64,000 nt of DNA from Gammaproteobacteria bacterium (GCA_965243395.1 CBDEUS010000002.1:107444-171443), one strand, 5' to 3'. Shown: positions 35,658 through 62,609, counted from the stretch's first letter. Made by a program: numbers and translations. The notes: a model not told the origin generated them from the sequence alone.

Positions 35658-35733
35658 TGGCGGACCCGATCGGACTCAAACCGACATCCCCTTTATCGAC
35701 AGTAAAGTGCTTTATCAATTAAGCTACGAATCC
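35658..35733 (-). tRNA. tRNA-Asp (GUC)
   Basis: anticodon arm CTTTA/TCGACAG/TAAAG, T-arm ATCGG-ACTCAAA-CCGAC. Confidence 0.65.
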
Positions 35734-36088: not shown

Positions 36089-36165
36089 TGGTGATCTATG
36101 TGGGAGTCGAACCCACGACCTATTGATTCTAAGTCAATCGCTCTACCAATCTGAGCTAAAAGATC
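36089..36165 (-). tRNA. class-I (77 nt) tRNA with Leu anticodon UAG (second copy)
   Basis: T-arm GTGGG-AGTCGAA-CCCAC, 5-nt variable loop, anticodon arm ATTGA/TTCTAAG/TCAAT (anticodon TAG), canonical D-arm, A73. Confidence 0.6.
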
Positions 36166-36605: not shown

Positions 36606-36681
36606 TTTGGTGGAGGATCACGGATTTGAACCGTGCGCCTTCTGTTTGCAATACAGACGCTCTGCCAACTGAGCTAATCCC
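36606..36681 (-). tRNA. tRNA-Ala (UGC) with G3:U70
   Basis: anticodon arm TCTGT/TTGCAAT/ACAGA; acceptor strands GGGGGAT/ATCCTCC give the G3:U70 Ala identity pair. Confidence 0.75.
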
Positions 36682-36690
36682 CCAAACTTA

Positions 36691-36765
36691 TTTGGCTGCG
36701 ACGGTTGGACTCGAACCAACATTGCTTCGCTTAACAGACGAATGTTCTACCATTGAACTACATCG
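36691..36765 (-). tRNA. tRNA-Asn (GUU)
   Basis: anticodon arm TTCGC/TTAACAG/ACGAA, T-arm GTTGG-ACTCGAA-CCAAC. Confidence 0.65.
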
Positions 36766-36775
36766 CAATTATATT

Positions 36776-36852
36776 TGGTGCATCAGGATGGATTCGAACC
36801 ACCATCGCGTCGGGCTTCAACCGACCGCTCTACCCATTGGAGCTACCGATGC
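36776..36852 (-). tRNA. tRNA-Phe (GAA); sequence differs from the att-site Phe fragments
   Basis: anticodon arm GTCGG/GCTTCAA/CCGAC, D-arm GCTCTACCCATTGGAGC; its T-arm and acceptor differ from the 14005/47417 repeats. Confidence 0.7.
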
Positions 36853-36860
36853 AAAAATAA

Positions 36861-36945
36861 TTGGTGGAGAGAGATGGATTCGAACCACCACGCTAATAAT
36901 TAGCACTGGGTTACAGCCAGCGTGTCTCACCAATGACTGTCTCTC
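36861..36945 (-). tRNA. tRNA-Tyr (GUA), class II
   Basis: 85 nt; 15-nt variable hairpin ACGCTAATAATTAGC; anticodon arm ACTGG/GTTACAG/CCAGC. Confidence 0.65.
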
Positions 36946-36959
36946 CTAAAGTTAAAACT

Positions 36960-37035
36960 GGAGCTGGTGATAGGCGTCGAACCTACAACCTACTGCTTAC
37001 AAAGCAGTTGCTCTGCCATTTGAGCTACACCAGCA
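36960..37035 (-). tRNA. tRNA-Thr (UGU)
   Basis: anticodon arm ACTGC/TTACAAA/GCAGT, acceptor GCTGGTG/CACCAGC. Confidence 0.7.
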
Positions 37036-47416: not shown

Positions 47417-47461
47417 TGGTGGCCAGGGGCAGAATCGAACTGCCGACACGAGGATTTTCAG
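47417..47461 (-). repeat. direct repeat 2: 3' half of a tRNA-Phe(GAA) gene, att-site remnant
   Basis: minus strand reads CTGAAAATCCTCGTGTCGGCAGTTCGATTCTGCCCCTGGCCACCA; identity to a tRNA ends exactly at the 5' side of the anticodon loop. Confidence 0.75.
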
Positions 47462-47585
47462 CCTGCTTCATAACTGTAGATACTCGTGCACGTTTCGTGT
47501 TTAATAGTAATTAAATCTTACACTTAAAACGTTTAATTAATTTTAAACGTGTCTAATCGTAGCACGAAATCTTCCACCAAATGGT

Positions 47586-48881
47586 ATGAAAAAAGTGCAA
47601 GGGTGGTGCAAAGTTCGCTACGAGGATTTTTTGGAGGATGACCATATGAGTAAACATCAAATCCACTTAACCAAACACGATGTACAAAACTATCCACGAC
47701 CCGAACAAGGAATGCTTCGATTGTGGGACAGCGAGATTGAAGGTTTGTATGTTTTAATTCCAGCTGCAGGAAAACGAACCGCATACTTTCGTTATCGCAT
47801 TCAAGGACGCCAACGTGATTTTCGCATTGGTCGCATCGATCGTCTGAGCTTGAAGGCAATACGTGATGAAGCCAAAAAGTGCGCCGCGAGAGTCGAGCTT
47901 GGCCAAGACATACAAGAAGCCAGAAATGCAGCTAAGCTTGCGCTACGTGAAGCCAAAAATAATCAAGGTGCGCCCAATCTCCAATTGTTTGGAGACTTCT
48001 ATCAACACTATTACATCGATTATGCAAAAGCGACACTGAAAGATTATCGAAAACGTCTACGAGCCATCGAATTTAACTTTTCACAATGGTTTGATAAACG
48101 TTTAGATGAAATCAATGTGCCGTTAGTGGCTAGTTGGCGTAATCACAAACTGGCAACACCTGTTACAGTAGGCAAAGGCGACAATCAAAAACAACGTGAA
48201 CGTACTACCGGCGCGATCAATCGACCGGTTGGCTATTTGAAAGCGCTACTCTCCGTTGCTTATGAAGAAGCGGAGCTTTTGGATCATCACCCTCTTGATC
48301 GACTCAAACCTTTGAAAGAACCTCGACACAAGCGTGATCGGTTCTTAACCAATGAAGAATTTAAACGTTTACGTAATAGTTTGCGCGGACGTGATGATTA
48401 TCTACCGGTTTTAATAGAACTGGGTATTAACACAGGTTTGCGTTTGAATGAGATGCTCACCTTAGAATGGGGATCAGTTGATTTACGTAATCAGACGCTG
48501 ACGGTGGAAAGTCATTACGCCAAAAGCAAACGCAAGCGAACCGTTCCACTCAATAATTCGATTACCGCAGTCATACGTGATTGGAAACTTCGTACTCAAC
48601 GCTTTGGTCCATGGGTATTCACCAATCCGAATACCGATAATCACTACGTCTCCATTTACCGCGCATGGAATACAGCGATGCAAGAAGCCGGCATTGAAAA
48701 CTTCGTGCGTCATGATTTACGCCGTACCTTTGGCAGTTGGCTCGCCGAACGCGGTGAGAGCATTTATGTGATTAAGAATTTACTCGGACACTCCAGTGTG
48801 AAAGTCACCGAAGAAAGTTATGCGTATCTACAAGACAAATCTCAACGCGATGCGGTAGAACGCCTTGAAGCGATCGCATAG
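47586..48881 (+). CDS. int: tyrosine recombinase, P4-type integrase
   Basis: 431 aa; C-terminal catalytic box HDLRRTFGSWLAERG...LLGHSSVKVTEESYAY (R, H-x-x-R, Y). Confidence 0.85.
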   Translation: MKKVQGWCKVRYEDFLEDDHMSKHQIHLTKHDVQNYPRPEQGMLRLWDSEIEGLYVLIPAAGKRTAYFRYRIQGRQRDFRIGRIDRLSLKAIRDEAKKCAARVELGQDIQEARNAAKLALREAKNNQGAPNLQLFGDFYQHYYIDYAKATLKDYRKRLRAIEFNFSQWFDKRLDEINVPLVASWRNHKLATPVTVGKGDNQKQRERTTGAINRPVGYLKALLSVAYEEAELLDHHPLDRLKPLKEPRHKRDRFLTNEEFKRLRNSLRGRDDYLPVLIELGINTGLRLNEMLTLEWGSVDLRNQTLTVESHYAKSKRKRTVPLNNSITAVIRDWKLRTQRFGPWVFTNPNTDNHYVSIYRAWNTAMQEAGIENFVRHDLRRTFGSWLAERGESIYVIKNLLGHSSVKVTEESYAYLQDKSQRDAVERLEAIA

Positions 48882-49194
48882 TACTGCATGGAATAGTGTC
48901 ATTCATGACATTAAAAACCTCGTTGTACCCGATGCGAAAGAGCTCGCCCATTTGCTCGTATCCGAAAAAGAAATCCCTGGCATCGTACGCCTGTGGCTTG
49001 GGATGTATATTCTTAGCCATCTTAAACCGGATGGAAAACTGCTTAGAAGACACCAACGAAATCTCGTTCGCGATATTTATCAAGAGGCAATTAAAAATAA
49101 TATGAAACGTAAAGATGCAATCGAGTTTATCAGTAAACAAATCCACAAAAGCCCAAAAACCATCGAGGGTTACATCGATTCTCCACGTGAGTGA
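48865..49194 (+). CDS. hypothetical small protein (uncertain)
   Basis: 109-aa + strand ORF just downstream of int; competes with a minus ORF 48805-49320. Confidence 0.3.
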   Translation: MKRSHSTAWNSVIHDIKNLVVPDAKELAHLLVSEKEIPGIVRLWLGMYILSHLKPDGKLLRRHQRNLVRDIYQEAIKNNMKRKDAIEFISKQIHKSPKTIEGYIDSPRE

Positions 49195-49393
49195 GGTGCA
49201 GAGCCCAAATCCTCGCCTCATATAAAACAATCCACTCGGTTTCTGACAGTTACGACAAAGATTTAACGAACAGTTATTTTTTCCACTGTTGTTCCACCTA
49301 AAACACCTGAGTTTTTTCAAAAAATTCCGGTTTTAACCATTATTAACCGTCGCTATGGTGCATGCTTCATAGATCGAACACGAAGGTATCAAC

Positions 49394-49660
49394 ATGGAAC
49401 AAATGAGTAAAATAATTGGTTCAATACAAAATGGTGAAATCTTCACTTCAGGAGAAGCCGCAAAGTATTTAGGCGTATCGTACGAAACTCTAAAACGTGC
49501 CCGCTATACCAGCAAACTCAATGGGCAACCTGCTCCCAAACACATGCGTCTCAACTATCGAACTGTGGTCTATCGTAAAACCAGTTTGGATGAATGGCTG
49601 AACTCACTAGAAGAATTTGAAACTGGCGCAGAGGCCAATACGGCTCTGTATGAGAAATAG
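49394..49660 (+). CDS. AlpA/excisionase-like HTH protein
   Basis: 88 aa; HTH FTSGEAAKYLGVSYETLKRARY; typical position downstream of a P4-type int. Confidence 0.55.
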   Translation: MEQMSKIIGSIQNGEIFTSGEAAKYLGVSYETLKRARYTSKLNGQPAPKHMRLNYRTVVYRKTSLDEWLNSLEEFETGAEANTALYEK

Positions 49661-50123
49661 AGAAAAACCATTTCGATTTAAATGGGCAGATGCAGTACGA
49701 AATTCAGACTTACCCGCTACAACAAAACACGTGTTATTAGCGCTATCGACTTATATGAAGAATACAGGAACAGACTGTTGGCCTTCTTATCAAAGGATTG
49801 CCAAAGATACGAGTCGCAACCGAACCACAGTAATTAAGCATATACAAAATGCGGTGAATTTAGGTTGGATAGTCAAAAAAGTCAGGCACGATGTTCATGG
49901 TGATCATACAAGTAATGTGTATCTACCCAGAATTCCTAACAGTAGTCTTACTAAACAACTACCTGGTTGCAAACAACAACAACCTTGGTCAAAACTAAAT
50001 GGGACAGTAGTAGCAGCAGCCGACTCTAACAATACAATTAACCATATAACTAACAAGACGAATACGGTTATTAATGTAGAAGAATCAAGAAAACAAGTGC
50101 GTGAACTCGTAGGCTTAAAGTAA
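49617..50123 (+). CDS. phage/plasmid replication-associated HTH protein (HTH_36-like)
   Basis: TTKHVLLALSTYMKNTGTDCWPSYQRIAKDTSRNRTTVIKHIQNAVNLGWI. Confidence 0.5.
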   Translation: MKLAQRPIRLCMRNREKPFRFKWADAVRNSDLPATTKHVLLALSTYMKNTGTDCWPSYQRIAKDTSRNRTTVIKHIQNAVNLGWIVKKVRHDVHGDHTSNVYLPRIPNSSLTKQLPGCKQQQPWSKLNGTVVAAADSNNTINHITNKTNTVINVEESRKQVRELVGLK

Positions 50124-50137
50124 CAGGAATTTCAAAG

Positions 50138-50365
50138 ATGGATGATGGTTATGTACATATTTCAGTAGTTGAACATTTAGTATCGTTAGGCTTCGATGAT
50201 GTGACAATGTGCAGCTTAAATGAGAAGCAGCTAAAAGCGATGGAAACATTAGCAAAAGAAGCAGGTATCAAGATACTCGATGAAAATCCAGAAGAGTATT
50301 TAAAAATTAATAATTATTCCCCACATTTCAAATTGATTAAGGGCGGCGGGAAAGGGAGACAATGA
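50138..50365 (+). CDS. hypothetical small protein
   Basis: 75-aa ORF following the replication-HTH gene. Confidence 0.35.
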   Translation: MDDGYVHISVVEHLVSLGFDDVTMCSLNEKQLKAMETLAKEAGIKILDENPEEYLKINNYSPHFKLIKGGGKGRQ

Positions 50366-50396
50366 CTTAAATTAATTACTAAATTAGAAAGCCAAA

Positions 50397-51155
50397 TTAT
50401 TCAGAAAAAAATTCTTTTATAATATATTCACTACCTGAAATTATATTTTCATATAAAGCAAATGAAAAACTTAATAAACTTAATAATAATAATATCAAAA
50501 TCACTATCCTAACTGGCTTTCGTATAGTCGAGTACCTCCCAAATACCTCCCAAAATAATTCACGCTCAACCTCTTTAGTCTGTTCTATATCAAGCTCATT
50601 ATCTGAATTTAATATAGGCATGCCTAAAGAATAAATTTTACTTTTGTACTCAAAATATAGTACTGATTGATTTTCTTGAACATTAACTAATGGTATATCA
50701 GAAGCCTTAATGCCAAAATTTGATAATTCAGACTTACTTAGCTCTTTTATATATCCTTTTGTTTTTATTCTTTCAAAAAATTTTGGGAGCTCACTTTTTG
50801 CTTTCACAATATCTAATGAAATCCATGCAATCCAGCGTGGAGCATGTTTGTGAGACTTATAATCTGAAAATGATGAGTATGTCTTGATAAATTTTGGGCA
50901 AAATATCATATAAAGTATATATGCAATGACAAAAAACAAGGATGCAGCCCAAAGATATTGCCATGTAAATGGAAGTTGAAAATTTATAGTTAACGAAGAA
51001 TTTTCATTAACTTTGAATATAACTTGCTCGGGAACATTTTCTAATATTTTTGCAATTGCAGGTACAATTGCAAACCAAGCCACAAGATAGCGAAATACAG
51101 TTATATTAAATTTTTCGTTATACCATTGCCAATGAGAATATACATTATTCAACAT
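50397..51155 (-). CDS. hypothetical membrane protein (partner of radical-SAM gene)
   Basis: 252 aa; TMs at N-terminus, middle and C-terminus; start overlaps the radical-SAM stop by 7 nt. Confidence 0.45.
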   Translation of the reverse strand: MLNNVYSHWQWYNEKFNITVFRYLVAWFAIVPAIAKILENVPEQVIFKVNENSSLTINFQLPFTWQYLWAASLFFVIAYILYMIFCPKFIKTYSSFSDYKSHKHAPRWIAWISLDIVKAKSELPKFFERIKTKGYIKELSKSELSNFGIKASDIPLVNVQENQSVLYFEYKSKIYSLGMPILNSDNELDIEQTKEVERELFWEVFGRYSTIRKPVRIVILILLLLSLLSFSFALYENIISGSEYIIKEFFSE

Positions 51156-52375
51156 TTCACTTTATCCCACTTATAAATTTTCCTTCCGGATTTATCTTTA
51201 TCACCATTAAAGTATACTCCATAAAAAGTTGTTGGGTTAAATGGTGAATCCAGATTTTGCCAACGATGAAGCAAATAATCCTCAACAGTATTATGTGCAT
51301 TATTTCTTTTTGGTAATCGAGAATTTGAATTTAAGTGTTTATCAATTGATCCAGCTGGTTTCCAATATTTTTGGATTCGATCGTATGTAATATTTTCAAA
51401 TCCAGATTTTTTAACCGCATGACTTATTTGATACTTATTCCAATTTTCAAATCCATCAAATTGATCTACTCCACTACAACAACAGTTTGTGTCTGACATA
51501 TATTGAAGCTCATTATCAGCAGCACCAAATGTTATCCCAAATTTATTAGAAGCTGATTTAACTTCTTTTAGTCGTTCAATCTTATATTCAGGAGGTAGCA
51601 CATATTCTCTACCATCACGATTGGCTTTAGATAATTTATAATGATTATTTATATCAAAATCTAACTTAAGCGATAGGCGTCGCCATAACTCATTATTTTT
51701 TTCAATTGGTAGTTTCAAGTGTTCTAAACCGAGATGCTTTATCCCACTTGCAGCAATTGCGCTTACAAACTTGCTTGGATCTTCACTTACATTTGGTATA
51801 TATGGTTGCCATCTAACAGTTGTATTAATACCATTTCGCGATAGCTTACTTATTGCTTTTAATTTTTCTGAGGATGTAGGCGCATGTGGTTCAGAATAAT
51901 TAGAAATCTCATTTATTGCACTAGAGAAAGAATACTGAACAACTAAATGTGGATTAGATTTTAGAACATCTAAATATTCTTTTTCAGCAACTAGCGGTGA
52001 TTTTGTACTTATTACTACAGGATAATTTATCTCACATAAATATTTTAAAATCGCTAATGACACCCCACTTTTTTTCTCTGCAGGTTGAAATGGATCACTC
52101 ATACCTCCGAAATGTAGCGGAAGTCGATGTCTTATAGCTTCTGAAACAATACCTGTGGCCGTATCCGGATGTTTTATCGCAAATTTAAATCTTTTAATAA
52201 TTTTTTCAGGATCTGCAATTTTTAATTTTTTAGATGAAGTATTTCCCCCTCGAAGTCTGGCAAAACAGTAGCTACAGTTAAAATTACATCCCGAATATGT
52301 ATCAAGCCTAAAAGGTAAACCACAAAAACTGAATTGGCTAGTGATTCCAATTGGCGTCGTATATTCTATTGTCAT
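51149..52375 (-). CDS. radical SAM protein, spore-photoproduct-lyase-like (COG1533-type)
   Basis: CNFNCSYC = Cx3Cx2C near N-terminus; 408 aa. Confidence 0.65.
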   Translation of the reverse strand: MTIEYTTPIGITSQFSFCGLPFRLDTYSGCNFNCSYCFARLRGGNTSSKKLKIADPEKIIKRFKFAIKHPDTATGIVSEAIRHRLPLHFGGMSDPFQPAEKKSGVSLAILKYLCEINYPVVISTKSPLVAEKEYLDVLKSNPHLVVQYSFSSAINEISNYSEPHAPTSSEKLKAISKLSRNGINTTVRWQPYIPNVSEDPSKFVSAIAASGIKHLGLEHLKLPIEKNNELWRRLSLKLDFDINNHYKLSKANRDGREYVLPPEYKIERLKEVKSASNKFGITFGAADNELQYMSDTNCCCSGVDQFDGFENWNKYQISHAVKKSGFENITYDRIQKYWKPAGSIDKHLNSNSRLPKRNNAHNTVEDYLLHRWQNLDSPFNPTTFYGVYFNGDKDKSGRKIYKWDKVKC

Positions 52376-52592
52376 TCCTGTGGCTATAAATTAAGAATAA
52401 ATACAGGGTTGTCACATAGTATATTCCGATCAATATCGAAAAAACTCTGGATAGTATCTGCCTAATTCAATTTGTTAAAATTCAGAGTCGTGAATATGAG
52501 AAATCTCCCTGAGTGCAGTGAACCGCTTATCTGCCTAACTTGAAAAATTGTGAAATCTTGGCATAAAAAAGAGGTTTATTTGATATAATTAA

Positions 52593-52667
52593 TGGAGGCC
52601 AGGGTCGGAGTTGAACCGACGTATTACACCTTGCTGGGGGTATGCATCACCACTCTGCCACCTGGCC
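52593..52667 (-). pseudogene. degenerate tRNA-like gene (Cys-like: anticodon GCA, U73) with broken anticodon stem and A33
   Basis: acceptor GGCCAGG/CCTGGCC, T-arm GTCGG-AGTTGAA-CCGAC, D-arm GCA-TCACCACTC-TGC; no 5-bp anticodon stem; loop CAGCAAG lacks U33; overlaps the ImmA stop by 21 nt. Confidence 0.4.
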
Positions 52668-53270
52668 TTTTAAGCTCACTCTTTGCAAATTTGCTAAAAT
52701 CTTCATTGCTTCGATTAAGGAGCAATCGTAAATTCTCATAATTTTTTCTTTATCTCTTTCGTCTCCAAGTAATCTTGAATCTAATAAAAACGCATCTCTA
52801 AATAAATCTGCTTGGCACTCGGAATCAGTATGTCTATCTACTGATTGAAATTCATCAGTTAAGTTTAGGTACTTGGATTTGTGATTACAGAAATAATGTC
52901 CAAGTTCGTGTGTAATTACTTGGAGAGCATCAAAAGAATATGATTCAGCAGCTGCCCAGATGCTTTCTCTAAACTGAAAAAAATTGGATGGATTATCTGT
53001 ATTATCTTTAGGACAAAATCTAGCTGGCCCGAAGTCCAATAAATCATCCTCAAGCAATTCAAAGTATGGATAATTGTTATCTGGGCTATGCTTAATACTA
53101 AAATATGTAATTAATTTTGTTGGATCTGCAAGATTTTTATTATTATTTCTAACAAATCCATATTCCAAACAGTAGTCTATAGCCTGATGTGCGATAGAAA
53201 CAATCTCATCATCTGATTTATACGGTACTTTGCAACCATAATTTCTTGTATCACGTAGAGTACTCATCAA
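52647..53270 (-). CDS. ImmA/IrrE-family metallopeptidase
   Basis: HExxH in THELGHYFCNH; 207 aa; overlaps the upstream XRE gene. Confidence 0.7.
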   Translation of the reverse strand: MMSTLRDTRNYGCKVPYKSDDEIVSIAHQAIDYCLEYGFVRNNNKNLADPTKLITYFSIKHSPDNNYPYFELLEDDLLDFGPARFCPKDNTDNPSNFFQFRESIWAAAESYSFDALQVITHELGHYFCNHKSKYLNLTDEFQSVDRHTDSECQADLFRDAFLLDSRLLGDERDKEKIMRIYDCSLIEAMKILANLQRVSLKGQVAEW

Positions 53271-53610
53271 GAATAGCCTTTATTCTTTTTTTGTCCTCAA
53301 CAGAAAGTTTTTTAAATCTTTGATGAAATGAATGAGTTAAAGCCCTCTCATCCAAACTATAATCATCAAGGTTAAGTTTTAATTGATTAATTGATAATTC
53401 CGCCCACTCATTCCATTGTTTTTTTGTAATCCCAAGGTTTTTAAAGAATTTGTAAGTCTTATTAATTATGTCTGTAGAAATTGGTTTCTTGCCATTCTCA
53501 ACCGCTGATAAATAACTAAGTTTGATACCCAAATACTCAGCCATTTCTGTCATGGTTACACCTTTATCTGTTCTGGCAATTCTGGCTTCTCTACCAAATT
53601 TTGTAATCAT
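53251..53610 (-). CDS. XRE-family HTH transcriptional regulator
   Basis: MTEMAEYLGIKLSYLSAVENGKKPIS; classic XRE-ImmA pair. Confidence 0.7.
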   Translation of the reverse strand: MITKFGREARIARTDKGVTMTEMAEYLGIKLSYLSAVENGKKPISTDIINKTYKFFKNLGITKKQWNEWAELSINQLKLNLDDYSLDERALTHSFHQRFKKLSVEDKKRIKAILDEYST

Positions 53611-53721
53611 ATTAAAATCACTCCAATATAATCTATTCGGGTTAAAATATTAACCTATATAGGTTAACTTTTCAAGACTAGGCAGAAGTAATTTAATGAC
53701 CATGTAATTGCTTGTTTTTGA

Positions 53722-53752
53722 AGGTGGAACCGGTAGAACTCGAATCTACGGT
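53722..53752 (-). repeat. tRNA 3'-end fragment (T-arm + acceptor strand only)
   Basis: GGAACCG then GTAGA-ACTCGAA-TCTAC; no foldable anticodon or D arm follows. Confidence 0.4.
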
Positions 53753-53822
53753 CAAAGGATTGTGTGGTTTCTTATTTTGTAAGAATTGAGGATATTTGAA
53801 TCAAGTTGGATCCTGATGATCA

Positions 53823-54413
53823 TTAATCATTAAATCCGACTATAAATGAGATGCTATACATATCATTCCCTTCCGCATCGGTAATGATAGTGATGTTTTC
53901 TTGGGTAAGTATTTGATGCTCTTTTGGAATGTATTCTTGTTCAAGTACGGGACGCACTAATTTTAACAAAGACCGAGGTGATAACGACTCAATATCAATT
54001 ACTGAGAAAAATAAGGTAATGGCTGTCATCCCATCTTGCCACCATAATTCCAACCGGTAAGGTCTCTGGTTTTCTAACATACCGGATTTAGCACCAAGAT
54101 CCCCTTCACGTAATTGAGAATCATTACAATATTGATTAGGTATAAATTTAGATCGATTAGGTACTGGATACTTTGAAGTAGATTCAGAGTAACTACAATT
54201 ATGTGCAAAAGATCTAGAACCAATTTTCATGCGCTCTTTTTGTTGATCTTCTTGCCACCAAAAATATCCTATTATTCCACCCAGCATGAGGACAAGTGCG
54301 TTACCAGTGGTCAGTCCATGATCTAACACATAAACGGTTCCTAATATCAGAGCTGAAAGCCCGATAAGGTAAACGATCGTTTTGCCTGTATTTTTAATGG
54401 CCTTTAATTGCAT
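53823..54413 (-). CDS. hypothetical membrane protein
   Basis: 196 aa, two N-terminal TMs. Confidence 0.45.
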   Translation of the reverse strand: MQLKAIKNTGKTIVYLIGLSALILGTVYVLDHGLTTGNALVLMLGGIIGYFWWQEDQQKERMKIGSRSFAHNCSYSESTSKYPVPNRSKFIPNQYCNDSQLREGDLGAKSGMLENQRPYRLELWWQDGMTAITLFFSVIDIESLSPRSLLKLVRPVLEQEYIPKEHQILTQENITIITDAEGNDMYSISFIVGFND

Positions 54414-54469
54414 TCTTGTTTCATGAGTATATAGGTTTTACTTACTGTAGACTATAGTCCGTAGACTAT

Positions 54470-54733
54470 ATGTCACATCTGGATAAGGTCTATCACATGA
54501 TAGACCAACGGATTCTGCAAGATTGTTTTGGAGATGTGCTCCGAGAAGCTAGATTGCGTGCATCCTTATCACAAGAAGCCTTAGCGATGGAATGCGAGCT
54601 AGATCGTACTTTTATTTCAATGTTAGAGCGAGGTCAAAGACAGCCTTCACTCTCAACAATTTTTGCTCTATCTGATGCCCTTGGTATTAGACCCTCTACT
54701 CTATTGAAAAAAGTAGAAACTGCAACTGAGTAG
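54470..54733 (+). CDS. XRE-family HTH transcriptional regulator
   Basis: LSQEALAMECELDRTFISMLERGQRQPSLSTIFALSDALGIRPSTLL. Confidence 0.6.
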   Translation: MSHLDKVYHMIDQRILQDCFGDVLREARLRASLSQEALAMECELDRTFISMLERGQRQPSLSTIFALSDALGIRPSTLLKKVETATE

Positions 54734-54972
54734 AGGATATGTATACTGAATGTCGCTCTAAAAATTGGAGCAACTATCAAATAGTTAATTAATAGTTGAT
54801 ATATACATAATTGATTTCCACCTAATTTCCATCAAATAAACTTCAATAATTCAGTTTATTTTAAACCCTTCTTCAGTATGCTTTCAGCTAGTCTTCAGCA
54901 CGAAAAACTAGTCAAAAACCTCCCCGCAGTAACCTATTTATTTAATATAGAAATGCGGACAATCAAACCTCA

Positions 54973-54996
54973 ATGCTTCAATATCCGCTTTCAGCC
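54973..54996. repeat. intergenic imperfect-palindrome repeat, copy 1
   Basis: ATCCGCT-TTCAGCCAAT-AGCGGAT; a related half-site TGCGGACAAT lies 20 nt upstream. Confidence 0.55.
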
Positions 54997-55027
54997 AATA
55001 GCGGATAAAAATATAATTACCTGGCGA

Positions 55028-55702
55028 TTAATCCCAATTAACAAACTTTTTATGAGAAAAAAACAAAATATTAATAATCCAATACAAAATAACTATCAGT
55101 ACCAACATTGTCGGAATACCAACAATGTAAAATACTTGCTCTATTGGCATTTCTTTAACGTTAGAACCTTGCATTTTTATAATCTTATCCGTGAATGCTA
55201 ATAGGGCCCAAATCAGAGAAAATCCGATTCGCCATACATGTCTAATTATGCGTTGATTTCCTGATAAGCCTGATAGATATAAATTTCGGATATCTCCAAT
55301 TGCACAAAGAAAGGCAAAGCCTGCCCAAAAAAGATAAACACTTGGAACATTTACATCACGCCAACCAGCACTTACAAAAAGTGCAGCTATAGCAAAGATA
55401 ACAATCCATGCTAGAGCCACATATTCCATGAAGCCAGTTTCATATTTTTTATGCTTCGCTGTTAGCCATGCAGTGAATACTGTATAGATCACAACAGCAC
55501 TTAAAAACATGTCATCTGTGGATTCTTTTAAATGTGCGGCTACGAATCCTGAAACTAGCATGATGGTCATTGAAACAGTGAACCAATTACCAGCTTTCCG
55601 ATGACTAATGCCTCCTTTGATTACGAACAAGGCAACAACAGCAGTAATGAGTCCAATGGCTCCTGTAGGAGTATGAATCATCCAAACTACTATTTCTTTC
55701 AT
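55028..55702 (-). CDS. hypothetical polytopic membrane protein
   Basis: 224 aa, ~6 TMs. Confidence 0.5.
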   Translation of the reverse strand: MKEIVVWMIHTPTGAIGLITAVVALFVIKGGISHRKAGNWFTVSMTIMLVSGFVAAHLKESTDDMFLSAVVIYTVFTAWLTAKHKKYETGFMEYVALAWIVIFAIAALFVSAGWRDVNVPSVYLFWAGFAFLCAIGDIRNLYLSGLSGNQRIIRHVWRIGFSLIWALLAFTDKIIKMQGSNVKEMPIEQVFYIVGIPTMLVLIVILYWIINILFFSHKKFVNWD

Positions 55703-55769
55703 TTAATTATTCTCTATCTGTTGAACTATTAAATAAAATGAATGACCGCTTTGGCTCGTTAGCAGTCAT

Positions 55770-55799
55770 TTTGAACGTTTGTTTTCAAGCTTCCAACCA
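55770..55799. repeat. intergenic imperfect-palindrome repeat, copy 2
   Basis: AATGACCGCT-TTGGCTCGTT-AGCAGTCATT. Confidence 0.55.
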
Positions 55800-55824
55800 A
55801 ACTTCCCTTAAATTAATCTAAATT

Positions 55825-55852
55825 ATGTCCGCTTTCGGCCAATAGCGGACAT
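55825..55852. repeat. intergenic imperfect-palindrome repeat, copy 3 (25 bp right of copy 2)
   Basis: ATGTCCGCT-TTCGGCCAAT-AGCGGACAT; 9-bp perfect arms, 10-nt spacer. Confidence 0.6.
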
Positions 55853-55859
55853 TCATGAA

Positions 55860-56429
55860 CTAACCTTTTTCAAATAAATATTCATAGTTATTTCCATCAT
55901 CTTCTGATTCATGGATTAGTTCCCAGCCTGCATTATTAGCTAGTTCATTATATGCAGCCGAACCTAGGGAATAATATTTAAAAGAAATACCATTCATCTC
56001 ACCTATTGTTGTGTTTTTTTCCTTCGCAGACGTAAACAGAAATCGTCCACCACTAGCTACTGAATTAAAAACATTGTTTAGAACTTCTATCTGATCATCA
56101 GGATTGAGATGAAATAGTGCACCCCAACAAAGAACACCATCAATTGTAGTCTTAGGAAAAACATAATCTTGTAGACGTGAGTGGATTACAGCTGAGTTAG
56201 TAAAGTTTGATTTAAAAGATTCAACCATTAACCTTGAACTATCAACACCAAGTATATTCATCCCCATCTGTTTTATTGTATTGGCAAGCGGTAATCCTGT
56301 ACCGCAACCTAAATCAACAATAGTTGAACCTGGCTTTAAATTTTTGAATGCTAACTTAACAGAATCAACTCCCACGTCGTCATTCCTAGATTTAAGATAC
56401 CAGTCAAATATTTGATCGTATTCTTTCAA
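55860..56429 (-). CDS. class I SAM-dependent methyltransferase
   Basis: motif I VDLGCGTGL; 189 aa. Confidence 0.7.
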   Translation of the reverse strand: MKEYDQIFDWYLKSRNDDVGVDSVKLAFKNLKPGSTIVDLGCGTGLPLANTIKQMGMNILGVDSSRLMVESFKSNFTNSAVIHSRLQDYVFPKTTIDGVLCWGALFHLNPDDQIEVLNNVFNSVASGGRFLFTSAKEKNTTIGEMNGISFKYYSLGSAAYNELANNAGWELIHESEDDGNNYEYLFEKG

Positions 56430-56470
56430 GATTGTTAAATTGGTTTTTATCTGTTTTGGATCGTTTCAGT

Positions 56471-56932
56471 CTAATTTATCTTGTATTCTTTTTCCCAGTT
56501 ATCTAACTCAGCAAGTGTTAGTTCAATCATACGATCAGGGTTATTTCTCAGCAGCTTTAGTTTTTCTTTCGGTATATACACCAAATCATCTAAGTGCCTG
56601 CTAGACCATCGAACAAGATGAGTAAGGGTATGAACCAAGTCCTTACCGCTTTGAGTTAAATAATAAAGTTTACGGGTTCCATATTCAGGATGCGGTATCA
56701 CATCAATCAACTCATACTCAAGCAATCGATCTAGTCGGTTGCTCAGAATATTAGTGGAAATACCTTCCTCAGCGTCAAGTAGCTCTTTGTACTCATGTCG
56801 ATTGAAAAACAGTAGATCACGGATGATAAGAAGCGTCCATTTATCGCCAAGGACATCTAAGGCACACGCCACTGGACATTTCGTACGTTCACAGTGCAGT
56901 TGCTTAGGTGATGCCATATATATTACTTGCAA
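56471..56932 (-). CDS. HxlR-family winged-helix transcriptional regulator
   Basis: CPVACALDVLGDKWTLLIIRDLLFFNRHEYKEL. Confidence 0.65.
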   Translation of the reverse strand: MQVIYMASPKQLHCERTKCPVACALDVLGDKWTLLIIRDLLFFNRHEYKELLDAEEGISTNILSNRLDRLLEYELIDVIPHPEYGTRKLYYLTQSGKDLVHTLTHLVRWSSRHLDDLVYIPKEKLKLLRNNPDRMIELTLAELDNWEKEYKIN

Positions 56933-56973
56933 AATAAAAGTGATGTGTCTATAGTTTCATATCCACTTCCATT

Positions 56974-57696
56974 TTGCAAGTGGTATTTACTGAGGACATT
57001 ATTATGCCAACACATAACGTCGTGACACATAGAGAATGGGTAGCCGCTCGCAAACAACTGCTCGTAGAAGAAAAAGAATTTACTCGTCTTCGAGACCAGC
57101 TAAGCCAAAAACGTCGAGATTTACCTTGGGTAAAACTTGAAAAAGAATATGTATTTGATGGACCCAGTGGTCAGCATACTCTTTCAGATTTATTTGAGGG
57201 ACAAAGCCAGTTAATAGTGTATCACTTCATGTTAGGGCCTGATTGGGATGAAGGTTGTAAGAGCTGTTCGTTTTGGGCAGACAATTTTGAAGGTACAGAT
57301 ATTCATCTAAAGCATCGTGATATTACCTTTCTTGCCATATCAAGAGCTGAAATTGAAAAAATTGAAGCTTATAAAAAACGTATGGGCTGGACCTTTAAAT
57401 GGTTTTCTTCATTCAATACAGATTTCAATTATGACTTCCAAGCCTCGTTTACTTCGGATCAGAAAGAAAAGAATGAAGTGATCTATAACTACATTAAACA
57501 ACCCTATTTTATAGATGAGATGGCAGGGGTAAGTGTATTTATCAAAGATGAGAATAATAACATCTTTCACACCTACTCTACTTATGCTCGTGGTTTGGAT
57601 ATTTTAAATGGTGCCTACAACTATATTGATTTAACACCTATGGGACGTAATGAGGAAGACGGCATGTCATGGCTACGGCATCATGATCAATATTAG
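56974..57696 (+). CDS. DUF899 thioredoxin-like family protein
   Basis: 240 aa; CKSCSF motif; divergent from the HxlR regulator. Confidence 0.55.
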   Translation: MQVVFTEDIIMPTHNVVTHREWVAARKQLLVEEKEFTRLRDQLSQKRRDLPWVKLEKEYVFDGPSGQHTLSDLFEGQSQLIVYHFMLGPDWDEGCKSCSFWADNFEGTDIHLKHRDITFLAISRAEIEKIEAYKKRMGWTFKWFSSFNTDFNYDFQASFTSDQKEKNEVIYNYIKQPYFIDEMAGVSVFIKDENNNIFHTYSTYARGLDILNGAYNYIDLTPMGRNEEDGMSWLRHHDQY

Positions 57697-57723
57697 TTTC
57701 AAATATAAATCTATCAATACCAT

Positions 57724-58119
57724 ATGAAAGCTTTAACTAGTGGCAGGTGCATGTGCGGTGCAATACGTTATGAATTTAACGACAAACCTTTATATTCACT
57801 CATCTGCCAATGTACACAGTGTCAAAAAATTACTGGCGCTGGTAATGCGCCTTCCATAGCAATTGCAAATGAAACATTCAAGCTTGAAGGAAAACTAAGT
57901 TATTTTAAACAGTTAGCAGAAGATGGAAATACGGTCAGCAATGGGTTTTGTTCAAAATGTGGAAATCCCATTCTCAAAACAACCACCGCATTTCAAGACC
58001 GAGTTTACCTGCATGTAGGTAGTTTAGATGATCCAGGAAAGTTTGAACCAGAATTCGTTGTATTTAGTAGAAGTGGGTATTCATGGGACACCGTTGATCC
58101 TAAATTAAAGCGGCTCTAA
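57724..58119 (+). CDS. GFA-family (CENP-V / glutathione-dependent formaldehyde-activating-like) zinc protein
   Basis: CMCGAIRYEF, CQCTQCQKITG, CSKCGNP cysteine pattern. Confidence 0.65.
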   Translation: MKALTSGRCMCGAIRYEFNDKPLYSLICQCTQCQKITGAGNAPSIAIANETFKLEGKLSYFKQLAEDGNTVSNGFCSKCGNPILKTTTAFQDRVYLHVGSLDDPGKFEPEFVVFSRSGYSWDTVDPKLKRL

Positions 58120-58161
58120 TTAAAGCTAATTAATCTTAATCAATAGAAGAAAAGAATTACC

Positions 58162-58572
58162 ATGAAAAAATTTATTCTCGCTACACTTTCATTTTTCATT
58201 TTAACTATGCCCTGGGCATATTCGTGGCATGTGATTTGGTTTCATGAGCTTTATGGACAACTAGGAGCATTTACGCGCACATCGCCCATTATGCCTCTTG
58301 GTATTGCGGCGGTATTAATACAAGGTGCTGTTATATCTTATCTCTATCCATTTTATTACCGAGGTGGGCATCCAATATTTCAAGGAATTAAGTTCAGCTT
58401 AATTATCGGTTTAATGGTGTATACAGTGATGGGTTTTGCTAATGCTGCAAAGCTTGCGATTGAGCCTATTTCAACCTACTTGGCGTACCATACAATTTTT
58501 CAGCTCATTCAGTTCGTTGTTACCGGTGCAGCACTAGGATTAATTTATGGTAGAACACTGAACTCAGCATAA
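58162..58572 (+). CDS. hypothetical membrane protein
   Basis: 136 aa, 4 TMs. Confidence 0.45.
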   Translation: MKKFILATLSFFILTMPWAYSWHVIWFHELYGQLGAFTRTSPIMPLGIAAVLIQGAVISYLYPFYYRGGHPIFQGIKFSLIIGLMVYTVMGFANAAKLAIEPISTYLAYHTIFQLIQFVVTGAALGLIYGRTLNSA

Positions 58573-58579
58573 ATAATTT

Positions 58580-58607
58580 ATGTCAGATTTCGACCATTAG
58601 CGGTCAT
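58580..58607. repeat. intergenic imperfect-palindrome repeat, copy 4 (degenerate left arm)
   Basis: ATGTCAGAT-TTCGACCATT-AGCGGTCAT, between convergent genes. Confidence 0.5.
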
Positions 58608-58612
58608 TCCTT

Positions 58613-58975
58613 TTACAAATCAACCAAGACATTAAACCCACCCATAATCATTCTATTGATTTCAAATGGCATATTATTTTCATCACAGCTTTCTTTCATG
58701 CGTGGATCTTGAAATACCTTTTGATTGACTTCATCACGATGTTCTCTTGATTTATATACGACAAATGCAAATATTACGGTCTCACCATCGGATGAATTGG
58801 CCGCTTTGCGGAATGCGCCATTAGACATTTCTGAATCAATATCATCAGCGATGCATTCTTTATAAGCTAAAGCACCATGCTCCATCCAGACTGCACCCAT
58901 TTTCTTTGCCAAATCTTTATATGCATCAATATTAGATTCAGGTAGTGGGATTACATAACCATCGACATAACTCAT
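58613..58975 (-). CDS. DUF1428-like small protein
   Basis: 120 aa, MSYVDGYVIPLPESNIDAYKDLAKKMGAVWMEHGALAYKECIADD. Confidence 0.45.
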   Translation of the reverse strand: MSYVDGYVIPLPESNIDAYKDLAKKMGAVWMEHGALAYKECIADDIDSEMSNGAFRKAANSSDGETVIFAFVVYKSREHRDEVNQKVFQDPRMKESCDENNMPFEINRMIMGGFNVLVDL

Positions 58976-59012
58976 TTTTTAATTCCTAATATAATTACTT
59001 TTATAAGACTAA

Positions 59013-59040
59013 ATGTCCGCTTTGGGCCGTAAGTAGTCAT
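59013..59040. repeat. intergenic imperfect-palindrome repeat, copy 5 (degenerate right arm)
   Basis: ATGTCCGCT-TTGGGCCGTA-AGTAGTCAT. Confidence 0.5.
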
Positions 59041-59177
59041 CTTAAACCATGACCTGGTGAGATGTATTCCTTGTTTCAGATACTTGAAAGGCGATATGCG
59101 GACCACCAATCCCCTGTTCTTAATAAGTATAGCTAATTTTTATAATCACTTTTGTAGCAAAGGAAGAAAATAATATG

Positions 59178-59582
59178 TTAATCATGTTTGGGTAAGTCGT
59201 CTACAATATCAATTATGCGCCTACCATAGAAAAAATGACTATCAGAATGTAATTCTTCAGGTAGTTCATTGTTATTACATTTTCTGATTAAAAGCTGAGA
59301 GAAAACACGCCAGTCCATCGCATTTGTGTTGAAAAGTGTTTCGCCACAACTCGAACAAAATACTCGTTTCATCTCTAAGGTTGGATGTTGATGACTTGAT
59401 AATTTCTCCTCTCCCTGCACGATATTAACTTGATCTTTATTCCAAGCAGTTACGGAGTGAAAAGGAATGCATAGTAAGTCACGACAATCCTCACAATGGC
59501 AAAACCCTTTTACTCTTGGCTTACCAGATAGGGATATTTTAACTTCACCACATTCACATTTTATTTGATATTGTTTATCCAT
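59178..59582 (-). CDS. GFA-family zinc protein (second copy)
   Basis: CECGEVKI, CHCEDCRD, CSSCGETLF cysteine pattern. Confidence 0.6.
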   Translation of the reverse strand: MDKQYQIKCECGEVKISLSGKPRVKGFCHCEDCRDLLCIPFHSVTAWNKDQVNIVQGEEKLSSHQHPTLEMKRVFCSSCGETLFNTNAMDWRVFSQLLIRKCNNNELPEELHSDSHFFYGRRIIDIVDDLPKHD

Positions 59583-59611
59583 TATTAAAATCTCAATTAC
59601 TTTATACTGTA

Positions 59612-60196
59612 TTAAAATATTTTATTTAGATGTCCTGAAAATCGTTTAAGGTCGCTATCAATCTGCGGGTTTTTCATTACATCGAAACATGCAAATGTTT
59701 CTAGCGCTGTCATGCCAAAAAAACGAAAGTTCATGTGCATCGGGAAAAACAAATCATCTACTTTTTTTCCTTGAAATAGATATTCACTCTGATTTTCAAA
59801 TGATTCTTCAGGTGCATTGAAAGTTAATGAAAGCATATACTTAGTATTAGTTAGTGTGCCACCTCCCCCATAGTTTAATTTTGGGTTCTCGGTTGTTCTG
59901 CCATCTCCATTGCATAAGTCACCACCCATACCGGCTGAATATACTTCATCCATATACTTCTTAAAACTCCATGGTACTCCCATCCAATTAACGGGACTTT
60001 GCAAAATGATGTAGTTCGCCCATTTATGTTTTTCTAATTCATCCTTTACATCATATTCCTCTGCACTAACCGTCCTTTGTACTTGGTAACCTTTTTCTTT
60101 TAAATAAGAGATAGCGCTATCCGTTAACGTTTGATTAAGTTTGCCTTCTGAAAATGGATATGGCTGATGCGCTTTAATATGTAGAATATTTTTCAT
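59612..60196 (-). CDS. flavodoxin-like-fold NAD(P)H dehydrogenase (quinone) family protein
   Basis: 194 aa; N-terminus [12 protein letters not shown]... and [15 protein letters not shown] match the Flavodoxin_2/KefF-like family. Confidence 0.6.
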
Positions 60197-60281
60197 ATAA
60201 GCTAGTCTCTAATAATTTTACGGTTAACTGCGAGTTGAAACATTCATTTGATATTCCAACTCGCATCTGGATTAAATGCCA

Positions 60282-61115
60282 TTACGCTACTTTTGCTTTA
60301 TTTAAGTCTGGCCCAACTTGTAGATCCCAAAGACTGTCTTGGTACTTTTTACAATCTTCAATAAAACGCTCAGGATAAACATTGCGAAAGTTATGATTGT
60401 CCTTTGGTATAACATCAACCATAAACTCAATCATACTTTGTGGATCAAGTTGTAACTCATCACCAGAAAACAAACCTTGAATTTCACGAATGGGTGCTTC
60501 GGCACTAAAATTATTGCTAGGCTCATACCACTGATCTAAGGTGTCATACATACGATCATTAAACCCTGTACGGAAAGGCCCTGGGTTAATCGTTGCGATA
60601 GTGACGCCTGTATCTTGCATTTCTTCACGCATCAATTGAACAATTGCTTCAAGTGCATGTTTTGAAGCAACATAAGGCGCAAGATATGGAAAGGTTGAAA
60701 ATCCGACGATAGAAGAAGTAAATATAATTTTGCCTTTCCCTTTTTCAACAAAAGCTTTTGCAAATGCTTGAGCTAATTCAAGTGTATTAAATACATTGAC
60801 TTCAAAAACTTGTCGAATCCGATCTACAGGGATTTCTGCCACAGGTCCTGTTTGTCCAGTCGCTGCATTTGGTACAAATATATCTACTTTATCTGAATAT
60901 TTTCGGATAATGGTTTCATGGTCATCCTTGTTTAAGTAATCTAACTTAGTCACTTCTAACTCAACACCCTCTGTATTAGCTGCTTCCATTAATGCCGAAA
61001 CCTGTGGCCAATTTTCACAAGTGGCAATTACATTGTGACCATTTTTCGCAAGCCCAATTGCCGTACCTTTACCAAGTCCTGAGCCTGCACCTGTAATTAA
61101 AATTGTTTTACTCAT
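60282..61115 (-). CDS. SDR-family oxidoreductase
   Basis: TGAGSGLG cofactor motif, catalytic YVASK; 277 aa. Confidence 0.75.
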   Translation of the reverse strand: MSKTILITGAGSGLGKGTAIGLAKNGHNVIATCENWPQVSALMEAANTEGVELEVTKLDYLNKDDHETIIRKYSDKVDIFVPNAATGQTGPVAEIPVDRIRQVFEVNVFNTLELAQAFAKAFVEKGKGKIIFTSSIVGFSTFPYLAPYVASKHALEAIVQLMREEMQDTGVTIATINPGPFRTGFNDRMYDTLDQWYEPSNNFSAEAPIREIQGLFSGDELQLDPQSMIEFMVDVIPKDNHNFRNVYPERFIEDCKKYQDSLWDLQVGPDLNKAKVA

Positions 61116-61144
61116 TTTTCATACCTCATATATTAAAATGTGAA

Positions 61145-61465
61145 TTAAATGATTTGATGTCCTTTATGAATGACTGGATTTCTCTCCAGTACATTAGTTA
61201 ATTTCTCAATGGCTGAATTCAGATGAGGTGTTTCCCAATGAGCACTCTCATCATCTACAGTCCTCCATTTTTCATACGATAAAATAGTGTTAGCTTTCTC
61301 TTTATCGTGGATAAAGAAATATTCGATTGCCCCAGCTTCCTTTCGAGTATTTGTTGCTAGGTCATTTAGAATCGCTTTCAACTCATCATATTTGCCATCT
61401 TTGGCAGTGAGTTCTGCAATGGTGTACATGTATTCACTCATAGTATTTTCTCCTTTCAATCTCAT
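61145..61465 (-). CDS. ABM (antibiotic-biosynthesis-monooxygenase-like) domain protein
   Basis: 106 aa, ferredoxin-like fold pattern. Confidence 0.5.
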   Translation of the reverse strand: MRLKGENTMSEYMYTIAELTAKDGKYDELKAILNDLATNTRKEAGAIEYFFIHDKEKANTILSYEKWRTVDDESAHWETPHLNSAIEKLTNVLERNPVIHKGHQII

Positions 61466-61545
61466 GAATTTTTCAATGTTGAAAAATATATCGATTCAGG
61501 TTACTATAATCAACCAGTATACTTTTAGTAACCTAATAAGTTTTC

Positions 61546-61902
61546 ATGGAAAGTAGAGTAAAAACAGATAGTAAAGGCCGTAAAAGTGTCATTGAGCCAT
61601 GTTTAGAACCATGTCCAATTGAACGTGGTATGCGAATACTTGGAGGCAAATGGAAAGGATCTATTTTGTGGCATTTGAAAGATGAGCCAGTTCGATTTAA
61701 TGACCTAACACGAATGTTGGGTGGTGCTAGTAAGAAGATGGTTGATCAGCGGTTGAAAGAAATGGAAAAGGAAGGATTAATTGTTCGTAAAGTTCTAAGT
61801 GAACGCCCGATTGCTGTTACCTACCAAGCGACAGAATTTGGCAAAAGTGCTTTAAGCATTCTTGATGGCTTAAAAACTTGGACTGAAGCAAATAATCTCT
61901 AA
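61546..61902 (+). CDS. HxlR-family winged-helix transcriptional regulator
   Basis: CPIERGMRILGGKWKGSILWHLKDEPVRFNDLTRML; divergent from the ABM/SDR genes. Confidence 0.7.
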   Translation: MESRVKTDSKGRKSVIEPCLEPCPIERGMRILGGKWKGSILWHLKDEPVRFNDLTRMLGGASKKMVDQRLKEMEKEGLIVRKVLSERPIAVTYQATEFGKSALSILDGLKTWTEANNL

Positions 61903-61923
61903 AAGACCAAACTTTTCTAGTAA

Positions 61924-61950
61924 ATGTCCGCTTTAGATCGTTAGCGGTCA
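61924..61950. repeat. intergenic imperfect-palindrome repeat, copy 6
   Basis: ATGTCCGCT-TTAGATCGTT-AGCGGTCA, between the HxlR gene and terS. Confidence 0.5.
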
Positions 61951-62153
61951 ATTTAAACTATGCTCTGCAGAGATGTATTCATCCAATCAGCTAAATTTAA
62001 TTAAAGTAAAACAGTGTATTACGCACTGCATGACACCGAATAGACTTCTATCCACCATACTTCCACCAACTCTCAGCTTTTTTAGCATCAATAATTCTCT
62101 TATCTATGAGCTCATGATGCCTAAAACCTGTCATTTCCTGTATTTTAGTCTTT

Positions 62154-62609
62154 ATGAAAATCTGTTCCAAAAACTTAAAACGAGATCTGTTTGTCCGTCA
62201 TTATCTAAACCATCTCAACATTAATGAGGCATATAAACGAGCGGGGTTTTCGCCAGATGATGCCAATGCAAATCGATATTTCCATCGCAAAGATGTCCAA
62301 TTAGCATTGGAAGCACATGCTGCTAAGACATTACAGAAACTTGATATCAGTATTGACAAAACGATCAAGCATCTTGCTGCTATAGCTTATGGAAACGCTC
62401 TAGACGTAATGGAATATGAGACTGGGAAATGGAAGTTTAAAGAACTTCATGAACTCCCGCCTTGGGTCGCAGTATCGTTAAGAAAGTTTGATAAACAAGA
62501 TAATAGAATATCTTATTCTTTTGAACCAAAAATTCCAGCTCTTAAACTTTTACTTAAGTACCTTGAACTAAGAAAATTACTAAACAGACAGTCACAAGTC
62601 GGAAATTGA
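62154..62609 (+). CDS. terS: phage terminase small subunit (Terminase_2 / P27-like), orphan
   Basis: N-terminus KRDLFVRHYLNHLNINEAYKRAGFSPDDA matches the FV-EYL-NATEAA-RAGYS signature; no large-subunit or structural genes nearby. Confidence 0.65.
   Translation: MKICSKNLKRDLFVRHYLNHLNINEAYKRAGFSPDDANANRYFHRKDVQLALEAHAAKTLQKLDISIDKTIKHLAAIAYGNALDVMEYETGKWKFKELHELPPWVAVSLRKFDKQDNRISYSFEPKIPALKLLLKYLELRKLLNRQSQVGN

Follow-up and report, generated by a model that had tools for sequence, protein, structure and literature searches.

Mobile modules on Acinetobacter plasmids are flanked by pdif, which are sites of XerC-XerD recombination. Repetitive extragenic palindromes (REPs), bacterial interspersed mosaic elements (BIMEs) and REP doublets forming hairpins (REPINs) are short (20-40 bp) imperfect extragenic palindromes that occur in many copies, mainly downstream of genes and between tandem and convergent genes (PMC2817692, PMC3116915, PMC3733652). 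They form fixed composite dimers that can potentially fold into a longer hairpin, serve as specific insertion-sequence targets and are associated with rearrangement joints; the targeting of REPs by insertion sequences has been described (PMC1525189). CGTC repeats have a terminal CGTC/TGTC tag, an 8-9-bp stem starting with AT, a 4-5-nt loop and a CCA tail (PMC3733652). The element described here is a 28-bp imperfect palindrome found by pattern searches in six copies, between 54981 and 61951, in a 64,000-nt stretch of DNA from Gammaproteobacteria bacterium (GCA_965243395.1 CBDEUS010000002.1:107444-171443). This whole stretch is referred to as the window, and positions are counted from its first letter. 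On balance, the evidence favours reading the palindrome as a dispersed, untagged REP-like repeat that is copied in trans, sits at gene 3' ends and acts as a joint for the exchange of accessory modules, the window copies being mostly relics.

The unit resembles REPs, BIMEs and REPINs in most of the respects named above, and its recurring doublet may be a counterpart of their dimers. One difference is that units within a locus are direct and do not alternate. Neisseria dRS3/NIME repeats (the CGTC-1 family, PMC3733652) are likewise short palindromes that flank variable gene segments and are targets of mobile elements; however, dRS3 combines a tag and a CCA tail with an 8-bp stem and a 4-nt loop, and differs from the unit in sequence and architecture. 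Compared with CGTC-tagged repeats in general (PMC3733652), the unit has TGTC inside the stem, a centre of 6-10 nt and no CCA tail, and its sequence is absent from the supplementary files of that study. No published description was found by sequence or under the topics REP, Nitrosomonas and Bradyrhizobium in the searchable literature, which is incomplete.

Two kinds of recombination site were also compared. Integron cassettes are similar in that small, often promoterless accessory genes are each closely followed by an imperfect palindrome of one polarity, and in that modules recur in other contexts along with their site. However, attC sites are 55-141 bp long, whereas the unit lacks the R''/L''/L'/R' boxes and GTTRRRY, the repeat system has neither an integron integrase nor attI, multi-gene modules with their own regulators are repeat-bounded, and copies also lie beside housekeeping genes. 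The first-pass annotation of this DNA, made from its sequence, had suggested degenerate attC-like cassette boundaries. The boundary role is supported, since similarity breaks off where repeats begin or end and modules of the form repeat-gene-repeat are met again elsewhere; the attC identity is not, given a 28-bp unit without R/L boxes or an integron integrase. Sites of the dif/pdif type share the 28-bp 11-6-11 layout, the flanking of single- or multi-gene modules and the lack of a linked recombinase gene. The arms of the unit (ATGTCCGCTTT and AAAGCGGACAT) are unlike the dif consensus ..CATAA-N6-TTATG.. (PMC2731167), and pdif sites alternate, whereas the repeat sites are all in one orientation with highly variable centres.

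Anatomy of the repeat

The two arms of the unit, ATGTCCGCT(TT) and (AA)AGCGGACAT, are constant and enclose a variable 6-10-nt centre. The six copies in the window are as follows.

54981-55008, plus strand: copy 1, ATATCCGCTTTCAGCCAATAGCGGATAA; B-type centre; decayed arms ATATCCGCT / AGCGGATAA
55742-55769, plus strand: copy 2, ATGACCGCTTTGGCTCGTTAGCAGTCAT; A-type centre; left half of a doublet
55825-55852, plus strand: copy 3, ATGTCCGCTTTCGGCCAATAGCGGACAT; B-type centre; right half of the doublet
58580-58607, plus strand: copy 4; decayed left arm ATGTCAGAT
59013-59040, plus strand: copy 5; decayed right arm AGTAGTCAT
61924-61951, plus strand: copy 6; A-type centre; near-intact

The core CCGCT-N10-AGCGG with up to one mismatch was matched four times (0.31 expected), and the full consensus with up to three mismatches recovered five copies (0.00 expected). 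When only the two 9-nt arms were used, a limit of four arm mismatches returned exactly the six copies (0.07-0.27 in shuffled sequence) and nothing in the remaining 57 kb; at five mismatches two extra matches appeared, which is the chance level. The family, consensus and count of six given by the first-pass annotation, and the confinement of the copies within the 64 kb, were thus reproduced by pattern and arm scans. Its coordinates were right for four copies. For copy 1 it had given 54973-54996, and for copy 2 55770-55799, which does not overlap the true copy at all.

Two features were missing from that annotation, namely the uniform orientation of the copies and the mutational decay of copies 1, 4 and 5. 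All six are read as ATG..CAT on the plus strand, irrespective of the direction of neighbouring genes, and the orientation is kept on both sides of divergently arranged modules. Perfect 9-bp arms are present in copy 3 only, the arm mutations in copies 1, 4 and 5 are uncompensated, and the central 6 nt differ in every copy. Because arms and centres have diverged in most of the six, the window copies are best taken for relics, not for sites that are still active.

Copies 2 and 3, the single tandem pair that the annotation had noticed, have an 83-bp period and form a composite doublet.

55742-55852, plus strand: composite doublet of copies 2 and 3; A-type unit, 55-nt spacer (..TCCAACC..), B-type unit

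The same arrangement (A, 55 nt, B) recurs in low-GC genomes, at L059, L007, L040 (twice) and many metagenome loci; loci outside the window are cited by such numbers where they need to be told apart. A long hairpin was predicted for the doublet (-38.1 kcal/mol, z -3.3); as each unit is nearly palindromic, this hairpin fits either a direct or an inverted arrangement. Other composite forms were found in Hyphomicrobiales (L002-L119, for example L038, L013 and L034), where arrays have a strict 45-bp period made of a constant 28-bp unit and non-conserved 17-bp spacers, with centre variants in a set order (GGGTCA, ACCCCCG, GTGCCA). These arrays translate to spurious 'MSALGQKRT/CPL..KRT' open reading frames (ORFs). 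L126 is the nearest relative whose context can be read; there, the palindrome forms the core of a ~200-bp repeat and has conserved sequence to its left and right.

1290-1560, 3900-4140, 4620-4700 and 6400-6670 of L126: sites of the ~200-bp repeat holding the palindrome

In low-GC copies the palindrome is extended to TGA-ATG..CAT-TCA, so that stop codons stand on both sides in both directions. Copies 5 and 6 of the window share ~42 nt of further similarity to their right (..TTAAAC.ATG..CTG..GAGATGTATTC.., 59041-59082 and 61952-61993), which suggests another composite form of the A-type unit.

59013-59082, plus strand: copy 5 and the right flank in common with copy 6; repeat family D1
61924-61993, plus strand: copy 6 and the right flank in common with copy 5; similar to the flank of copy 5

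Occurrence in other genomes

All scans were seeded with window-derived patterns and sample part of the family. When one genome per species was scanned for ATGTCCGCTTT-N4-C-N2-TAGCGG, at least 119 loci were obtained, against ~17 chance matches expected for 18 fixed bases. Among the matches listed, carriers were found in Hyphomicrobiales (Pseudolabrys), Sphingomonadales, Caulobacterales, Rhodobacterales and Xanthomonadales, and in beta-proteobacterial and low-GC gamma-proteobacterial genomes. Alpha-, Beta- and Gammaproteobacteria are all represented. The cultured isolates Lysobacter soli, Frateuria hangzhouensis, Sphingomonas rhizophila and Pseudoroseicyclus aestuarii have the unit. A relaxed re-scan of the genome loci gave 353 sites, whose logo has sharp 28-bp limits and unconserved flanks. 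The metagenome scan for the B-type centre gave at least 120 loci (GC 0.33-0.67) with 266 sites. Copies were also present on six viral contigs, and single copies on a few enterobacterial and Pseudomonas plasmids. Lineages differ in the centre (GGGTCG, CGGCCA, TGGCAC, GGGCCA and others), while the arms stay constant. As shown here, the unit multiplies within genomes both as identical copies and in composite forms.

The first-pass annotation had treated a uniform chromosomal spread as the mark of a generic REP element with no island association. Widely separated chromosomal sites do occur in relatives (two sites 736 kb apart in the complete chromosome OZ252002.1), also beside housekeeping genes, and the repeat is therefore not island-specific. 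Its distribution is patchy rather than uniform, however, with up to 11 copies per 10 kb in some relatives and 0-1 per 20 kb in others.

Two other ideas about the unit were discarded. A short ATG..TAG frame inside it is an artefact, because the search pattern demanded TAGCGG and relatives carry AAAGCGG; the apparent TAG at unit positions 19-21 is an ascertainment effect of that pattern. A role as a DNA-uptake sequence was rejected since single arms never occur apart from whole units.

Placement and polarity

All six window copies are intergenic relative to plausible genes, as had been claimed. Copy 1 lies 20 nt past the stop of the minus-strand membrane-protein gene 55028-55702 and copy 2 lies 40 nt upstream of its start, while copy 3 is 8 nt past the stop of the methyltransferase gene 55860-56429. 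The genes on either side of copy 4 converge; their stops are 8 nt to its left (58572) and 5-6 nt to its right (58613). Copy 5 is 37-38 nt upstream of the start of the DUF1428 gene, and copy 6 follows the stop of the HxlR gene (61546-61902) at a distance of 22 nt.

In low-GC loci (GC below 0.44), with ORFs called by a simple longest-ORF rule, 79 copies were in tandem, 32 in convergent and 18 in divergent contexts, and eight were inside ORFs. The median distance past a stop codon was 43 nt. Orientation was called from four centre positions. Relative to the gene whose 3' end faces the copy, the motif strand was antisense in 58 cases and sense in 11 (p = 8e-9), but among genes that ran against the majority orientation of their locus the polarity was lost (7 vs 7). 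Orientation followed GC skew in 21 loci and opposed it in 10, which is only suggestive (p = 0.07). Polarity may thus track the replication strand or the array instead of transcription, and the three are inseparable because of the 7:7 ratio of minority genes and the GC-skew tendency. Small proteins with repeated 'DRR..F..P..D..G..I..DRR' motifs were seen near repeats of low-GC loci (L129 148-390, L144 2596-2814, L075 7218-7998).

Module exchange at the repeats

Among repeat-bearing loci, BLAST similarity ended within 6 bp of a repeat border at 31 of 148 internal ends. Random positions gave 2.45 on average and at most 9 in 2000 trials, so that the enrichment is ~12-fold, part of which is expected because the repeat itself is alignable. 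Several cases are clear all the same. One is the pair L129 and L160, whose flanks are 97-99.5% identical and stop exactly at the repeats; between these matching flanks lie different genes, 1.4 kb in one and 5.8 kb in the other. A CBS-domain gene with both of its flanking repeats is 83% identical between L007 and L029, and the DNA outside is unrelated. A zinc-ribbon gene is repeat-bounded in both L007 and L220. The repeats mark joints where accessory-gene blocks differ between genomes and are not regulator or integron sites.

In the window, the copies delimit four modules.

55028-55702, minus strand: module 1 (copies 1-2); one gene, 224-aa membrane protein
55860-58572, mixed strands: module 2 (copies 3-4); methyltransferase (minus), HxlR (minus), DUF899 (plus), GFA (plus), 136-aa membrane protein (plus)
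58613-58975, minus strand: module 3 (copies 4-5); DUF1428 gene
59178-61902, mixed strands: module 4 (copies 5-6); GFA (minus), flavodoxin-like NAD(P)H dehydrogenase (minus), SDR (minus), putative ABM-like monooxygenase (minus; labelled from the gene's own sequence only), HxlR (plus)

The DUF1428 module recurs in L252 beside other neighbours and with nearly the same packing (repeat, 37 nt, gene, 5 nt, repeat; in the window 37-38 nt and 5-6 nt). In L249 the DUF1428 gene is 89% identical, no intact repeat is present, and a possible decayed one lies downstream. The HxlR-DUF899-membrane core of module 2 was found at ~80% nucleotide identity in L256-L259 without repeats and without GFA; the repeats are therefore not obligatory for every module. 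The GFA gene at 57724-58119 stands between the DUF899 and 136-aa membrane-protein genes with no repeat at either border, and is taken as an insertion because those two genes are adjacent in L256 and L259.

The repeats are also a specific target of an insertion sequence. On three unrelated metagenome contigs the palindrome is split exactly at its centre by an IS30-family element (293-300 bits, cut-off 80), so that half a unit lies to the left and half to the right of the insertion.

~700-1960 of L189: IS30-family insertion in the centre of the 28-bp unit
~1775-3036 of L200: the same
~3868-4289 of L227: the same

This element appears to be a REP-targeting relative of IS30, although IS30 is not among the five REP-targeting insertion-sequence families named in PMC1525189.

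Setting of the copies in the window

An XRE regulator gene (54470-54733) precedes the copies, and a small-terminase-like ORF (62154-62609), directly adjoining pqiC, follows them. Upstream of them lie the following genes.

47586-48881: P4-type integrase (Arm-DNA-bind_3), beside a tRNA-Phe 3' fragment
49617-50123: replication initiator gene
51149-52375: radical-SAM protein, with an adjacent 252-aa membrane protein
52647-53610: ImmA-like/XRE pair

Because the integrase with its tRNA-Phe fragment, the replication initiator and the ImmA/XRE pair are found there, 47417-62609 looks like a satellite- or prophage-like remnant. No match was obtained when 54.0-62.5 kb was compared with phage and plasmid records by megablast.

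Two 3'-half fragments of tRNA-Phe(GAA), ~50 nt each, lie in direct orientation on the minus strand at 14005-14055 and 47417-47470, the latter 116 bp ahead of the integrase gene. The pair resembles att repeats around a ~33-kb segment that contains a tRNA array. No tRNA was called by ARAGORN or Rfam at the 14.0-kb fragment, or by ARAGORN at 47.4 kb. The array comprises 25 tRNA genes on the minus strand (32897-37034), with most anticodon families represented; such an array is uncommon on chromosomes and hints at descent from a mobile element or phage. An ARAGORN tRNA-like call at 52593-52667, with a four-base anticodon (cagc), overlaps the start of the ImmA-like ORF and is probably spurious.

Weighing of explanations

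In the reading favoured here, the 28-bp unit would be a non-autonomous repeat copied by a trans-acting enzyme not encoded in the window. Once inserted, it would be transcribed as a hairpin at the 3' ends of messages, and the many near-identical copies would act as recombination joints at which modules of accessory genes are swapped. The window copies would then delimit four modules inside a satellite- or prophage-like island.

Several results weigh against this reading. The 353-site logo has neither the GTAG nor the CGTC tag of the catalogued REP super-families, and the arms stay the same from class to class, whereas a REP is normally specific to a genus. The window copies are clustered, with six in 7 kb and none in 57 kb, and not dispersed as REPs are; some relatives have no copy in 20 kb. 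No pair of filled and empty sites was found among near-identical loci. A search with an E. coli REP-associated tyrosine transposase (RAYT) gave no RAYT-like protein in the window or in ~1.4-1.5 Mb of repeat loci, a sample from which about one match at most is expected since RAYT is single-copy. Clustering of the ORFs in the loci showed no transposase or recombinase family enriched among repeat neighbours; it yielded paralogous solute-binding proteins, spurious repeat ORFs, the IS30-family element and a few P4-type integrases. In the broad site set, a change in one arm is hardly ever matched by a compensating change in the other, and in 146 low-GC copies paired cells (77.9% vs 76.9% shuffled) and covariation score (0.114 vs 0.101 shuffled) were close to the shuffled values. 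What is conserved is the sequence, and selection on the fold is at most weak.

The main rival is a dedicated site-specific recombination system, in which the palindromes would be core sites, with an 11-6-11 layout of their own, at which a recombinase acting in trans moves the modules. Two 11-bp arms and a 6-bp centre, 28 bp in all, have the geometry of dif. Arrays keep one polarity regardless of gene direction, in the window too, repeat-gene-repeat packing is tight (stop codons 0-10 nt from the repeat), modules recur elsewhere with their flanking repeats, and similarity ends at the borders even where the flanks are 97-99.5% identical. Nevertheless, none of 255 loci has a recombinase linked to the repeats. 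The sole integrase of the window is P4-type and scored 46 bits on the integron-integrase model, whose cut-off is 265; of the gene families that recur in the other loci, none was recognised as an integron integrase, and three of these loci have a P4-type integrase. (The idea that integrase-adjacent copies are tRNA or att sites was dropped, no tRNA being beside them.) Strand exchange by a tyrosine recombinase would be prevented by the variability of the central 6 nt, the arms do not resemble dif, and 45-bp arrays, fixed doublets and copies beside housekeeping genes are atypical of recombination sites. The HxlR-DUF899 module, moreover, is present without repeats in L256-L259. This explanation is considered unlikely. 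A bolder form of module exchange, previously unrecognised and widespread in proteobacteria, is a doubtful proposal. In it, single accessory genes or small units of a regulator with its operon would travel from genome to genome flanked by repeats, and a conserved enzyme acting in trans, other than an integron integrase, XerCD or RAYT, would use resident copies to insert, delete or replace them. If true, it would be a dispersed, integrase-less counterpart of the integron, and the invariant arms would reflect the specificity of the enzyme.

The remaining explanations concern the palindrome as a structure or a binding site. Were it an RNA element, a 3'-end hairpin that terminates transcription or shields messages from exonucleases, the median position 43 nt past stops and the strong polarity with respect to the upstream gene would be accounted for. 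Hairpins of -7 to -13.6 kcal/mol were indeed predicted for copies 1, 2, 3 and 6 (-10.4 kcal/mol for copy 1 and -13.6 kcal/mol for copy 3), and G-U-compatible changes on the message-sense strand were in mild excess (49 vs 29, p = 0.03). For copies 4 and 5, however, the canonical hairpin is no longer predicted, so that the folding proposed as a check by the first-pass annotation applies to four copies and fails for two. No T-tract follows any of the six copies, none was called as an intrinsic terminator, and Rfam gave no relevant match in the window region (E <= 10) or in five other loci (E <= 0.1). Covariation is near the shuffled level, the polarity is gone for minority-orientation genes, and a function of this kind alone cannot account for near-identical 28-mers across bacterial classes or for doublets. 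An RNA element as the whole explanation is thus improbable. Still less probable are miniature transposons, either miniature inverted-repeat transposable elements (MITEs) or adjoining terminal repeats that an insertion sequence left behind. The inner 26 bp start with TG and end with CA, as do many DDE transposon ends, and in L126 the palindrome lies within the longer ~200-bp repeat; but the unit has no internal segment, the logo has no target-site duplication, no parent insertion sequence with matching ends was found (the ends of the IS30-family element are unrelated to the unit), and the unit is much shorter than known MITEs. Of the REP/MITE-like label first attached to the copies, the REP-like part agrees with hundreds of intergenic sites in many genomes, composite doublets and use as an insertion-sequence target, while the MITE part is not sustained, as the unit lacks both separate terminal inverted repeats and a target duplication. 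Operators of the two HxlR regulators, as the annotation had proposed, or of another nearby-encoded transcription factor, have hardly any probability. Palindromes suit dimeric regulators, and two HxlR genes lie among the copies. Yet neither HxlR divergent promoter region (56932-56974 and 61465-61546) contains a copy, most copies are at gene 3' ends, the two HxlR proteins show no mutual similarity at E <= 1e-5, and no HxlR homologue was found in the 255 other repeat-bearing loci.

Biological meaning

The repeats of the window tell nothing specific about HxlR regulons or an integron. In GC-rich carriers, spurious small proteins of the 'MSALGQKRT' type clutter annotation. With its invariant arms, fixed polarity, composite forms and cultured carriers, the family offers a tractable case for finding the enzyme that copies REP-like repeats with no known transposase. 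Its copies could mark swapped modules in flexible genome regions, and the repeats may help to drive the exchange of accessory modules.

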